Source: Chlamydiota bacterium
GTDB lineage: Bacteria > Auribacterota > Tritonobacteria > UBA1439
Direction: 5' to 3'
Assembly: GCA_037133055.1 (NCBI GenBank)
Contig: JBAXOY010000008.1
Span: forward strand, 1-44,159
DNA: 44,159 bases
The position numbers were made by a program. Positions within the stretch are counted from its first letter, which is position 1. Each line of letters opens with the position of its first letter. Below, piece after piece: positions 9,001-12,000 of this stretch.

Positions 9001-12000
9001 CGAACGGGGCGCTTGTCGAGGGTTTCCATCCCTACTCCTCCTCCCTCCCCCGCTCCGGGGAGCGCCTCTGCGCGACGCTCCTCGATTACACGGTGCAGGG
9101 ATCATTCCCGACGGGGCAGTGGAAAGCGTATGTCGCCGTGCTGCCCGCGGGGGCCCGGTTCATACCCGGGCACGTCCTCACCTATGCGGTCACGAATGTC
9201 ATGATCGAATAACGGGGTTTCGGCGCGCGGCGGGCGGTGTGTCACGGGGCGCGGTGCGCGATCAGGAGACCCAGTGGAGGACATCCCGGATCACGGACCA
9301 GCGGCGGCGGGCCCGGAGCGGGTTTTTCCCGAGCACCCAGTAGTCGTACTTCTTGTCGAGCGCCCCCTGCGCCCGCTCCATATCCAGCAGGGCGTTCATG
9401 AATCTGAGCAGCGAATCGTCGCTATTTTTTGCTACGGCGTAGGCATTCAGGAATTTAGTCCCTTCGTTCGGGCCTAAGGATGCGACGCAGTACGCGGGGT
9501 AGAGCAGGGTCCATGGCGCTCCCTCCTCCGCGGTCGTGAGAAGGGCGTCTCCCTTGTTCTCCGCGAAAAATTCCTTCTCCGAATCCAGACGGACCGCGCG
9601 CGCGTGCGGAAAAAGCTGCGGCATGATCTCCTCGTAGGCGGTCCCCTTCATCACGGCGATGGAGAGCCCGTCCATCTGCATGATCTTCTCGAGACTCGTA
9701 AACTCGTCCTTCCGGTAATCCGGCACCACGAACGCGAGGTGGGAGGACATGTAGGATGAGGAGAATTTCATCTTCCTGAGCCGCTCCGGCGTGATCACCA
9801 CTCCGGCCATCACGATGTCGCAGCAGCCCTCGTTGAGGGCCGTGTCGAGCGCGTCGTAGGTGACGGGCACAAACTCGACCCGCGGGACGCCGATGAGCGC
9901 GGCGAGCTCCCGCGCCATCTGCACGTCGTACCCGACGAGGGCGCCTTTCGCGTTGAAGAAGGCGAACGGAAGCGCGTCCTCGTTGTACCCGACTCGGATC
10001 GCCCCCCGGCGCATTATCCGGTCGAACACGTCGGGATAGTGGTCGCCGCGGTTGGGATTGGCCGCGAAAAACTCATCGATCGAGCGGTACACCGTGACCG
10101 CCACCCGGTCGCCCCCCCCCGATGCTCGCGGCATCGCGGGCATTTCCATTTCGGCGAGGCGCTCGTCTCCCCGGTAGGAGTCCCTGAGCATCCGCGCAAA
10201 GCCCGCCCTCAAGCCCCCGATGCAGGCGGCCATGACGACCGCGAGCACGGCCGCCCCGAGCATGAACTTCCCCGCGCGTATCCTGAAGCGGCCCGTGAGG
10301 CGGGCGGCGCAGACGGCGGTGAAGGCGAAGAGGAACATGCACGAGAGCCCCGCCCCGAAATAGCTGTTGAACGGCGAGGAGGCCAGGTAGAGCTGAAACG
10401 CGTCCTCGGGCAGGCGCATCAGGGTCAGCAGGAACGGCACGGCCGACTTGCCCGAACCGAAGAAGCTAAAAATACCGGCGGCGGCGCACTGGAACTGCCG
10501 GCCGGGGCCGAGCGGCACTTCGTAGAGCCACCCGGTAAAGAGGATGAACAGGTATGGCGCAAAGTCTCCCCACCGGGGGAAGTTGTACGCGATCGGGAGC
10601 AGGACCTCGACGTAGGTTCCGGCCTTCCCGTCCCCGTCCCCGTTTTTCCCGAACAGGTCGCGCACGCCGCGCTCAATAAGCGGGAGTGAGATAAATACAT
10701 TCTGGGCAGAGAAGGCGAGCACGAGCGCGCCGCTCGATGCGGCGAGGATGTCCCGGTAGCGGAACCCGGTGTGGATGGAAACGAGAAGCGGCAATGCGAC
10801 GAGCGCGAGGATGACGCTCAGGGCGATATACGACTCGCAGAAGAACTGGAGCTTGAAGAGGGTGTCGGGGGACAGGGTGCCCACCGCATAGGCCGAGACG
10901 ATAAAGATGCCGTACGGCACCACCGCCATGACGAATACCATGATGCGGGAGAGGGCGGCCGAGACGATATGGAGGATCTCGATCAGCGGTTTATTGCCGC
11001 GCGCCCCGATGAGAGCCGCGCCGAGGAAGATGGAGAAAAGGACGATTGCCGGAAGCATGCCGTCCGAGAGCGCCTTGAACGGGTTCGAGGGGATGAAGGT
11101 GGCGATCAGGTCGATCTGCTCGGGTTTCGCGACCTCGCTCGCGCTGTAGAAGGAGGCGGTCACCCGCGGGGGGAAGGCGAACTGCATCGAGAAGAAGAGC
11201 ACGATGCCGATGAGCCAGAGGCCCAGCATGAGCAGGCCGCCCTTCCGGGCGACCGTGCGTGCCTCGCCCCTGTCGAGGCCCCCGATGCCGGCGACGACGG
11301 AAACCACCACGTAGGGGATCACCGCCATCTGCATGAGCTTGACGAAGGCGACCCCTGCGGGCTCGAGGACCCTGCACAAATCCCCGAAGAAAAGCCCGCA
11401 GAGGATTCCTGCGCCAAGCCCCGCGAATATCCGGCCCGTCCGCCGCATCGGTGTCCCTTCAGCGCGGGATGAAGCTGCGCACGTAGCCGTTGAACCTGCT
11501 CCAGTCCAACCGGTATTCCACGGAACCCCTATCCGGGACGCCCGGCACGTCCGAGGGGATCACCGTATCTTTGCGCTGGAGCGTCCCGCTCCGGTAGAAC
11601 ACCCAGAGAAACAGGATGAACAGGATGAGAAGAATCTTCGTGCGAAGGTGCATTGCAGCCCTCCCGTATGATTTCGACTTCGCCGTATTTTATTATTATA
11701 CAGAACCCCTCGCCCGCCGCCCACAATTCTCTTGCCCCGTGGCACGGGAGGGACTAACATACTCCCGAGCTTGGACAAGGCAGCCCGATTCGCTTCTTCC
11801 ATCACAGGGGACTCCCGGAGGCATCGGGTGTCCTTTTTTTCTCTCCGGGGAGAATTGTATGCCATCCGGCGGTCGCACACATCCAGGGGGTGCACGCATG
11901 TCAACGGACGAGGCGAGGGAGATCATCAGGGGGGCGGGCTACGGGATGCTGGCGACCGACGTCGACGGACAACCGCGGGTGCGCCCGATGGCGTTCGCGG

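Follow-up and report, generated by a model that had tools for sequence, protein, structure and literature searches.

A GltPh-fold carrier fused to a family-3 solute-binding domain in a large family of bacterial and archaeal proteins

Results

The gene studied here lies at 9262..11448 on the minus strand, as do all features given below, of the window (the whole 44,159-nt stretch of DNA that was analysed). It starts with ATG, ends with a stop codon at 9262-9264, and encodes a 728-aa protein in which two Pfam domains are read in one frame. PF00375 (SDF) matches aa 6-371 (model positions 4-375/387) with an E-value of 3.6e-47 and a score of 161.7 bits, above the curated cut-off of 27.9, and PF00497 (SBP_bac_3) matches aa 484-705 with 6.5e-24 and 84.6 bits (cut-off 26.4). 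Apart from a DUF3681 match below threshold, a Pfam scan of the protein at E<=1 revealed nothing else, and no DctP, DctQ, DctM or Tct family in particular. A first-pass annotation of this DNA had placed both domains on a single ORF with identical coordinates and model ranges; these were reproduced by our scan, while its E-values (6.7e-48 and 1.1e-24) were slightly different. The three-part architecture that it described (SDF domain, extra helix, SBP domain) is present, and the full order of the chain is membrane domain, ninth TM helix, linker, SBP and C-terminal tail. The fusion gene is the only PF00375 match in its genome.

A 64-aa ORF with one N-terminal hydrophobic helix (11459..11653, read from the sequence) ends 10 nt ahead of the fusion ATG. 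Both other genomes of the genus (L003/L087, L004/L008) have an ORF about 66% identical to it at the corresponding place; no such ORF was found in the other loci examined, outside the genus, and the 64-aa protein matched no Pfam family. It is possibly a genus-specific accessory protein; the idea of a small upstream TM ORF as a general subunit was rejected, since it is found in one genus only. Directly upstream, on the same strand, lies a malonate decarboxylase cluster (mdcA, D, E, G, B, H). When 11 neighbour proteins were searched by tblastn against three related genomes, G002 (where the contig stops 3.4 kb upstream of the fusion gene), G007 and G004, the flanking sequence retrieved around the fusion gene contained no mdc gene, and the cluster was rejected as a clue to the substrate. 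The PNPOx neighbour is retained in another related genome, G001, on a short contig. Some neighbours are lineage-specific: a TLC-like transporter (7 loci) and DUF6164 (5 loci of Methylococcaceae type).

When the 894 ORFs that reach 90 aa in 79 loci were clustered, no conserved neighbour emerged. The most recurrent one, a receiver-domain gene, was present in 11 of the 79 loci at a distance of 1.3-6.8 kb and was never adjacent, and no ABC, TRAP or TTT components recurred across the same loci. The absence of a conserved neighbour in this set suggests that the system may be self-sufficient, with no partner gene. Rfam gave nothing at gathering score, riboswitch or other RNA, in the 44,159-nt window, and next to none of the sampled sequence words were present in one metatranscriptome from the likely source sample.

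The fusion is neither a product of chance nor a misassembly, because both Pfam domains are present in 119 of the best 120 full-length relatives and four further genomes from this taxonomic family encode proteins 59-71% identical in a likewise unbroken frame. That the fusion is widespread, as had been proposed, was borne out for bacteria and archaea alike: relatives are encoded by 672 stretches in species-representative genomes, and the holders include methanogens, Acidobacteriota, sulfate-reducing Desulfobacterales and a genus containing a Shewanella waksmanii isolate, in which 36 of 81 genomes searched have relatives. The isolate itself (L082) has two paralogues (39% identical). The carrier part alone matched 400 cluster representatives at E<=1e-30. 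Among the best 150 representatives in the carrier-only search, 122 were at least 650 aa long, and the other 28 were shorter and ended in cut SBP domains or unalignable tails. Matches to shorter proteins numbered 5 for the carrier part and 233 for the SBP part. All 19 'SBP-only' matches that were inspected on contigs of at least 14 kb begin partway into the fusion sequence and lack a signal peptide. A split two-gene form was not found; the shorter matches inspected look like fragments or frameshift products. The family is large, ancient and essentially always fused.

The membrane domain (aa 1-386, 10291..11448) adopts the GltPh/SLC1 fold with TM1-TM8 and the hairpins HP1 and HP2. Residues 1-385 of the carrier model superimposed on residues 1-389 of 9bgy with a Z-score of 38.5 (rmsd 2.5 Å over 348 residues) and on residues 10-416 of GltPh with Z of 30.7-33.5, in agreement with a second (deep) model. 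Foldseek laid the GltPh fold over the carrier with a TM-score of 0.81 across 401 columns, and the complete arrangement of eight TM helices and two hairpins was found in the modelled carrier part. Alignment of the carrier family with canonical SDFs by hhalign had a probability of 99.4 and ended at aa 360. At the sequence level, the N-terminal two thirds, including the IP(S/T)NPF motif in TM4, are alignable with canonical SDFs, and fusion members score 155-176 bits with PF00375, against 265-430 bits for SDFs of this phylum that are not fused.

The transport core has been re-made: canonical motifs are lost and a new set of core motifs is conserved. Both HMMER and hhalign set P291-R292-W293-G294, part of the TM7 motif N-F-P-R-W-G (aa 289-294, 10567..10584), on the canonical N-M-D-G (N310-M311-D312-G313), which has become P-x-x-G across the fusion family. 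P291 is kept in 229 of 231 members, F290 in 198 and G294 in 211, with positions 292 and 293 variable. Residues of the Na+ sites, as given in PMC12668577, are [S/T]92-93, N310, [M/S]311, [D/E]312 and [D/E]405. Those at 92/93 and 310-312 are not found in the fusion protein: the equivalents of T92/S93 are L77/W78 (W78 in 220 of the 231 members), position 310 is P, the variable positions 311/312 are R/W in the 728-aa protein, and position 405 falls inside a stretch of TM8 where no alignment is possible. The serine-rich HP1 motif of canonical SDFs is replaced by Q-N-V. The HP2 tip S-F-F-G-S (aa 328-332, 10453..10467; among 231 members F330 in 227, G331 in 197, S328 in 167 and S332 in 166) was set by hhalign on the canonical SDF HP2 tip, the second arm of the canonical hairpin being 8 residues longer. 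A profile of the C-terminal half, from HP1 to TM9, matched no SDF structure at E<=1.

TM8 of GltPh is the seat of its substrate-binding residues D394, R397, T398 and N401. The TM8 of the fusion family has no column at 0.9 conservation (231 members) and no charged residue in the 728-aa protein; aa 363 is Arg in 130 of the 231 members and Tyr in this protein. Near-invariant carrier residues cluster in HP1, TM7 and HP2 (F246 in 213, P256 in 221, P285 in 228, P291 in 229, F301 in 230, F304 in 227, W307 in 230, G325 in 215 and F330 in 227 of 231 members). Such constraint exceeds the needs of a mere anchor and suggests that the carrier holds a working site. The earlier description of a 'complete sodium:dicarboxylate symporter' therefore stands as to fold and fails as to the signature ion- and substrate-binding motifs. 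Because of the P-x-x-G, the L/W pair and the C-terminal half without an SDF match, neither Na+ coupling nor an amino-acid or dicarboxylate substrate should be assumed.

Beyond about aa 386, where alignment to every SDF structure has ended, we confirmed the further hydrophobic stretch of the first-pass annotation at aa 395-413, FMLGAAVLAVVMAACIGGL. Its 19 residues average 2.39 on the Kyte-Doolittle scale, one of the highest values along the chain; the stretch directly before this core is RLTGRFRIRAGK. Two AF2 models have a helix here, at 392-424 and 392-421, and we place the ninth TM helix at aa 392-424 (10177..10275). Across the family TM9 carries 0.32 K+R and 0 D+E per 18 residues, and the segment downstream is neutral. 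The K/R-rich TM8-TM9 loop (aa 382-394, 10267..10305), with means of 3.62 K+R versus 0.16 D+E per 13 residues in 37 members, is probably cytoplasmic. The topology of GltPh is N-in/C-in. From this topology, the K/R-rich loop and the neutral segment past TM9, we infer that the SBP domain lies on the outer side; the earlier argument that one more helix would bring it there holds. The linker that follows (aa 425-473, 10030..10176) varies in length and sequence. Its mean column entropy, 2.94 bits, is the highest of the ordered regions, with no column reaching 0.9, and its part at aa 441-472 averages 26 residues in 37 members versus 32 in the 728-aa protein. A short conserved strand at aa 450-453 is present in both AF2 models.

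The family-3 solute-binding domain (aa 474-705, 9334..10029) has the two-lobe periplasmic-binding-protein fold in addition to its HMM match above cut-off, and PF00497 is described by Pfam as an extracytoplasmic family. It matches AncCDT-1 (5t0w) in sequence (E 9.5e-33) and in structure (Foldseek TM 0.90-0.91; Z 26.6, rmsd 1.8 Å over 226 residues). In the AncCDT-1 alignment, R556 falls on the Arg of ..T-P-E-R.., a motif that amino-acid-binding SBPs carry, which points to a capacity for ligand binding. In HisJ, R77 binds the alpha-carboxylate and D161 the alpha-amine of amino acids. The carboxylate-binding Arg (R556) is kept in 134 of the 231 members; the usual place of the amine-binding Asp, which we take to be equivalent to HisJ D161, is T639 in the 728-aa protein and T, S or P across the family, and two residues further E641 is present in 203 of 231. 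Since both positions vary in this way, the class of ligand is uncertain and may differ between members. The protein ends in a conserved Trp-rich tail (aa 706-728, 9265..9333) with the pattern ..G-x8-R-W-S-V-I-R-D-V-L-H-W-V, in which G707 is found in 226, R716 in 221, W717 in 225, S718 in 204, V723 in 206, L724 in 207 and W726 in 195 of 231 members. Of the two peptide patterns picked for the locus scan as the most conserved, one lies in the tail.

An AF2 model built with 144 sequences reached a pLDDT of 91.7 and a pTM of 0.87, and most of the linker and of the tail exceeded a pLDDT of 80 (tail per block 91/79/90); with 37 sequences the pTM was 0.59. From the definition of pTM, independent domains of 430 aa and 260 aa in a 728-aa chain should have a ceiling of about 0.6, so that the value of 0.87 implies a defined arrangement of the domains in the predicted structure. 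The best matches of the shallow model were outward-facing structures, and those of the deep model intermediate or inward-facing ones (6wyk, Z 34.0; 6x12, Z 31.8). A predicted complex of the carrier (aa 1-430) and the SBP (aa 466-728) scored 0.00 in two runs made without controls, a result that weighs neither for nor against docking. Positions 363 and 556 showed no association (76/58/54/43); 363 and 603 were associated, but the pattern follows the split into the two main subclades, and shared descent confounds it.

Discussion

Binding-protein dependence had been described in the first pass as limited to ABC, TRAP and TTT systems. This view is outdated. Before 2025, TRAP and TTT were the only secondary transporters with known use of binding proteins; PMC12344293, published in that year, adds TAXI-GltS, fused forms included. 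The examples it gives are BP0402/BP0403 of Bordetella pertussis and fused forms in Lachnospiraceae, and the proposal rests on genomics, modelling and SBP ligand binding. The SDF-SBP proteins resemble TAXI-GltS as a non-TRAP, probably elevator-type secondary carrier paired or fused with an SBP. They differ in both families, TAXI-GltS having a GltS/ESS membrane component and an N-terminal SBP of the TAXI family. Fusion is rare in TAXI-GltS (14 of ~10,000 InterPro GltS entries; PMC12344293), whereas SDF-SBP is essentially always fused and, unlike the TAXI-GltS fusions, is found in diderm bacteria plus archaea. TRAP (DctPQM, SiaPQM) and TTT (TctABC) likewise combine an extracytoplasmic SBP with an elevator membrane component of the ion-gradient type (PMC12344293), but in membrane fold and in SBP family they have no relation to SDF-SBP, and their SBP is separate and soluble rather than part of one chain. 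The protein has no DctQ/DctM or TctA/TctB component and no DctP, TAXI or Bug SBP, and no genes for these recur in the 79 loci. The physical association of SBP and carrier seen in TRAP, TTT and TAXI-GltS is given here by covalent fusion, and the SBP would meet the carrier on its outer side.

ABC importers of the GlnPQ type (6h30, among the SBP sequence matches) have an SBP of the same PF00497 family fused to the translocator. Fused PF00497 domains of this type are captive substrate donors. The GlnPQ-type translocator is an ATP-driven ABC permease, whereas SDF-SBP has no ABC domain in the chain and none conserved nearby. With GltPh, GltTk and EAAT-ASCT the carrier has the whole TM1-TM8 and HP1/HP2 fold in common (Z 30.7-38.5); compared with them, the second arm of its HP2 is 8 residues shorter, its TM8 core is unalignable, the HP1 serine motif is lost, and a ninth helix, an SBP domain and a tail are added. 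The solved structure closest to the carrier part is AncInt (9bgy/9bgz/9bh0; sequence E 2.2e-19 versus 6.4e-8 for GltPh; Z 38.5), an SDF member presented in PMC12668577 as a reconstructed aspartate transporter uncoupled from Na+ and H+. AncInt retains NMDG, binds aspartate and has neither ninth helix nor SBP, whereas the SDF-SBP family has P-x-x-G. We found no paper describing the SDF-SBP fusion in a search confined to openly accessible articles.

On balance we lean towards an elevator-type secondary transporter with a tethered SBP and with non-canonical coupling and substrate site, a function read from sequence and models. TM1-TM8, with the GltPh (SLC1/DAACS) fold, would provide both the scaffold and a transport domain of the elevator type, and the ninth helix would take the chain back outside. 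There the flexible linker would tether the family-3 SBP, which would catch the solute, dock on the carrier and deliver it, the Trp-rich tail probably helping to hold it in its docked position. Three such chains, each with its tethered SBP, probably make up the unit, as in the trimeric GltPh. Coupling may be H+-linked, of another kind or absent, because the core has neither the canonical Na+ sites nor the amino-acid ligands, and the substrate site would be the conserved, uncharged, aromatic-rich pocket. Our guess for the substrate of the 728-aa protein is a small carboxylate-bearing molecule. A bolder version, which we put forward only tentatively, is that these proteins are the first SBP-dependent members of the SLC1 fold, uncoupled carriers in which the tethered SBP, and not ion coupling, gives specificity and directionality; the Na+ sites and charged ligands would then have been discarded for an uncharged, aromatic-lined site in many bacterial and archaeal lineages.

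The SBP could instead be a sensor rather than a donor, its closure on a ligand switching an SDF-fold carrier or channel for another solute or for an anion conductance like that of EAAT/GltPh. PF00497-like clamshells do gate ion channels and sense ligands in kinases, and with the canonical substrate and ion ligands gone from the core the transported solute may differ from that bound by the SBP. The fixed, confidently predicted arrangement of the domains (pTM 0.87) would fit allosteric coupling, and the top GltPh match of the deep model, 6wyk (Z 34.0), is an 'intermediate chloride conducting state', although a best match to one state, by Foldseek or VIA, does not show conductance. We nevertheless consider this reading rather unlikely: Pfam finds the two domains only, with no cytoplasmic output domain in any member, and fusions of PF00497 to transporters, such as GlnPQ, are known for substrate donation.

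Quite improbable, in our view, is a degenerate pseudo-transporter that anchors and perhaps trimerises an SBP serving an ABC importer or a signalling partner elsewhere. The lost signature motifs, the weakly conserved TM8, the status of the fusion gene as the sole PF00375 match in its genome and the receiver-domain genes 1.3-6.8 kb away in 11 of 79 loci speak for it. Yet a 390-aa polytopic anchor would not retain near-invariant residues right at HP1, TM7 and HP2 in bacteria and archaea, no ABC, kinase or other partner recurs alongside the gene, and elsewhere single helices or lipid anchors serve as the tether. An inverted topology, with an extra helix that does not span the membrane and a cytoplasmic SBP-fold domain acting, for example, as a regulatory ligand sensor, draws on the fact that the N-in/C-in orientation comes from homology to GltPh. 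TM9, however, matches the best TM segments in hydrophobicity (Kyte-Doolittle mean 2.39), has 0.32 K+R and 0 D+E per 18 residues with a loop of +3.5 net charge ahead of it, and leads to a domain whose family is extracytoplasmic by its Pfam description, which makes such a topology very improbable indeed.

The design of a GltPh-fold carrier with a tethered SBP, found in hundreds of bacteria and archaea, is probably a new kind of SBP-assisted uptake system. PMC12344293 raises the question whether SBP use goes together with the elevator mechanism and asks for more such classes as a test; if the preferred reading is true, SDF-SBP would be one, built on the best-understood elevator fold, that of GltPh/EAAT. 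Given the size, the age and the obligate fusion of the family, structural and co-evolution analysis should be able to read out its interface, and the family would also be a case of the SLC1 fold working without the canonical Na+ and substrate ligands. Hundreds of genes now named 'cation:dicarboxylate symporter', in methanogens, sulfate reducers, Acidobacteriota and the genus of the Shewanella isolate (36/81 genomes), probably do not encode canonical cation-dicarboxylate carriers.

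Domain architecture of the fusion protein

The fusion gene (9262–11448, minus strand) is a single ORF of 728 aa. On this one frame Pfam detects an SDF carrier domain (PF00375, E = 3.6e-47, aa 6–371, model positions 4–375 of 387) and an SBP_bac_3 solute-binding domain (PF00497, E = 6.5e-24, aa 484–705), and the segment at aa 395–413 between them is strongly hydrophobic (Kyte-Doolittle mean 2.39). The first-pass annotation, which had described both domains in one chain with an extra hydrophobic stretch between them, was correct. NCBIfam returned sub-threshold matches only: DctA/GltP/SstT models for the N-terminal part and polar-amino-acid SBP models for the second part.

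Two AlphaFold2 models were analysed, a shallow one built from 37 sequences (pLDDT 78.4, pTM 0.59) and a deep one built from 144 (pLDDT 91.7, pTM 0.87; none of its five models below 90.1). As modelled, residues 1–386 superpose on a complete glutamate-transporter fold (9bgy, Z 38.5, rmsd 2.5 Å over 348 residues; GltPh residues 10–416, Z 30.7–33.5; Foldseek TM 0.81 over 401 columns). No aligned SDF structure extends as far as the modelled helix 392–424, which is thus an added ninth TM helix. In GltPh, the N and C termini are both cytoplasmic. Across 37 family members the TM8–TM9 loop carries 3.62 K+R versus 0.16 D+E per 13 residues, TM9 itself 0.32 K+R and zero D+E, and the 28 residues that follow are neutral (2.57 versus 2.68). 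By the positive-inside rule, this K/R-rich loop would place the SBP domain on the outside.

An altered but conserved carrier core

In single-sequence and profile searches, alignment to GltPh-type structures reaches only HP1, at about aa 265, and a profile covering HP1 to TM9, the C-terminal half, matched no SDF structure at E ≤ 1. The core was aligned by two routes, to 9bgz with HMMER and to two unfused SDFs of the same phylum with hhalign (probability 99.4), which agree on four points: P291-R292-W293-G294 occupies the N-M-D-G position, Q249-N250-V251 stands where the serine-rich HP1 motif is expected, HP2 has a second arm 8 residues shorter than that of the aligned SDFs, and L77/W78 fall at the GltPh T92/S93 positions. 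Against the Na+-site residues listed in PMC12668577 ([S/T]92-93, N310, [M/S]311, [D/E]312, [D/E]405), the fusion protein clearly departs at four of six positions (92, 93, 310 and 312); position 311 is variable in the family, and 405 falls in the unalignable part.

The carrier core is under strong constraint despite these altered motifs. Among 231 full-length members, conserved residues include F246 (213), P256 (221), P285 (228), F290 (198), P291 (229), G294 (211), F301 (230), F304 (227), W307 (230), G325 (215), F330 (227), P347 (223) and D349 (222). No TM8 column reaches conservation of 0.9 in the same set; the most striking one, at position 363, carries Arg in 130 members and Tyr in 29 (the window protein included), with Ala and His in a further 19 and 13. 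We read the carrier site as probably re-made, largely uncharged and aromatic-rich, rather than dead.

The binding domain and its arrangement relative to the carrier

The best match of the SBP part is AncCDT-1 (5t0w; E = 9.5e-33, profile 1.4e-52, TM 0.90–0.91, Z 26.6), followed by a Trp-binding SBP (9e2b), cyclohexadienyl dehydratases and Arg/Cys/Glu binders, a ranking that says little on specificity since reconstructed ancestors are consensus-like. The domain is modelled closed (TM 0.88–0.91 to liganded structures versus 0.56–0.58 to apo-open ArgBP). R556 aligns to the Arg of the T-P-E-R motif and is kept in only 134 of the 231 members, and E641 in 203. The amine-binding Asp position, which we take from HisJ, holds T, S or P in the family.

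Of the ordered regions, the linker shows the lowest conservation (2.94 bits), and its length differs among members. Conservation across the C-terminal 23 residues is among the highest in the protein (R716 in 221, W717 in 225, S718 in 204 and W726 in 195 of 231), and this tail has pLDDT 79–91 in the deep model. For parts of 430 and 260 aa placed independently, we would expect a pTM not much above the larger part's share, about 0.6, and the shallow model has this value. The rise to 0.87, together with the confident linker and tail, implies that AlphaFold extracts a defined, if predicted, inter-domain arrangement from the deep alignment. The shallow-model carrier is closest to outward-facing or intermediate-outward structures (9bgy, ASCT2 OFS, EAAT3 iOFS), and the deep-model carrier to the intermediate 6wyk (Z 34.0) and the inward-facing GltPh entries 6x12 (31.8) and 4p3j (30.2), with outward-type entries near Z 25. 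Two modelled carrier states from one sequence are compatible with a two-position elevator, and are no proof of it.

Distribution of the family

A search with the full-length protein scored 7999 proteins, of which 246 reached E ≤ 1e-3; both Pfam domains are present in 119 of the best 120 listed, and the lone exception is a 443-aa piece. With the carrier part (aa 1–385) against 1.84 billion cluster representatives, 2621 matched at E ≤ 1e-3, of which 400 also passed E ≤ 1e-30. At least 650 aa long are 122 of the 150 best representatives; the remaining 28 stop within the SBP domain or have tails unalignable to the family. Short SBP-only relatives gave 233 matches at E ≤ 1e-10 among 920 candidates. 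The 19 inspected as proteins, from contigs of at least 14 kb, all start within the fusion sequence (HP2, TM8, TM9, linker or SBP domain) and none has a signal peptide, so these short relatives give no sign that the system also exists as two separate genes.

Of at least 703 pattern-matching stretches from species-representative genomes, 672 encode relatives. Named in the titles of such records are Methanoregula, Methanothrix/Methanosaeta, Methanosarcina, Victivallales, Acidobacteriota, Desulfobacterales, Syntrophobacteria, Methyloprofundus, Binatia and Chloroflexota. The one isolate among the records listed, Shewanella waksmanii HQB-86, carries a pair of paralogues that share 39% identity; of the 81 genomes searched in its genus, 36 contain at least one full-length copy and 13 show two matches. 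One Acidobacteriota contig bears two copies about 10 kb apart. Paralogous copies within one genome fit diversified specificity.

Around the window genome the distribution is patchy: the gene was found in five of the seven genomes from its own taxonomic family and in none of the 53 that belong to the phylum's other families. The closest named relatives among the matches listed are MAGs labelled Candidatus Aureabacteria or Auribacterota. DNA near-identical to positions 9200–11900 was found in freshwater and lake-water metagenome runs of several studies, five runs besides a possible source holding at least half of the sampled words.

Genomic surroundings

Upstream lies a malonate decarboxylase cluster (12315–18561, minus strand throughout) with mdcA, the alpha subunit (16837–18561), the carboxyltransferase subunits mdcD/mdcE (15511–16398 and 14753–15613), MdcG (14088–14756), CitG/MdcB (13226–14104) and an mdcH-type acyltransferase within ORF 12315–14003 (Pfam match at ORF aa 260–529, about 12417–13226). 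A PNPOx-like gene on the opposite strand sits between cluster and fusion gene. No malonate transporter gene was identified adjoining the cluster, which is not kept beside the fusion gene in three related genomes. Beyond it are genes for a B12-binding radical SAM protein (18900–20513, minus) and a pterin-binding, dihydropteroate-synthase-like protein (20687–21502, minus), then an Rrf2 regulator, a Cys/Met-metabolism PLP enzyme and a PALP (cysteine-synthase-like) enzyme (21620–24418, plus).

Ending 10 nt before the fusion ATG is a 64-aa ORF (11459–11653, minus) that has a single hydrophobic helix, at its N terminus, and is preceded by a TATAAT-like box and GGGAGG. It holds the same position, at about 66% identity, in the genus's two other genomes; it has no Pfam family, and no counterpart was found in other lineages. 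A 472-aa ORF without a Pfam match (7794–9212, plus) faces the fusion gene tail to tail; the related genome G007 has a 55% identical relative about 5 kb away from its fusion gene, and weaker matches occur in two others, G002 and G004. Some immediate neighbours elsewhere are specific to one lineage: a DUF6164 gene overlaps or directly follows the fusion gene in five Methylococcaceae-type loci, and a TLC-like (ATP/ADP-transporter-family) membrane protein lies 33–430 nt from it in three Acidobacteriota loci. The window has no Rfam match. Across the 79 loci compared there is no recurrent adjoining gene, and the fusion gene looks self-sufficient.

Interpretation

SBP-dependent secondary transport has recently been extended: PMC12344293 describes TAXI-GltS as a new class beside TRAP and TTT, which it gives as the only ones known before, reports TAXI-GltS fusions as existing but rare, and contains no occurrence of SDF or GltPh. 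Our literature search, with databases and subscription papers outside its scope, returned nothing relevant on an SDF-SBP fusion (PF00375 with PF00497) or an SBP-dependent DAACS/GltPh carrier.

Three other readings were weighed. The SBP might gate the carrier or a conductance, or act as its sensor, which we consider unlikely, if the most serious of the rivals. That the carrier is a degenerate anchor while the SBP works for another system would suit the altered Na+-site motifs and sits poorly with the conservation of the core; we hold it improbable. A reversed topology, against which the charge of the TM8–TM9 loop speaks, seems very improbable.

The most economical reading, which we favour by a modest degree, is that the fusion would be a tethered-SBP, elevator-type secondary transporter of SLC1 fold whose coupling and substrate chemistry depart from the canonical. 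From R556, the aromatic-lined core and the nearest solved SBPs, our low-confidence guess is that the putative substrate of the window protein may be a carboxylate-bearing, perhaps aromatic, small molecule.
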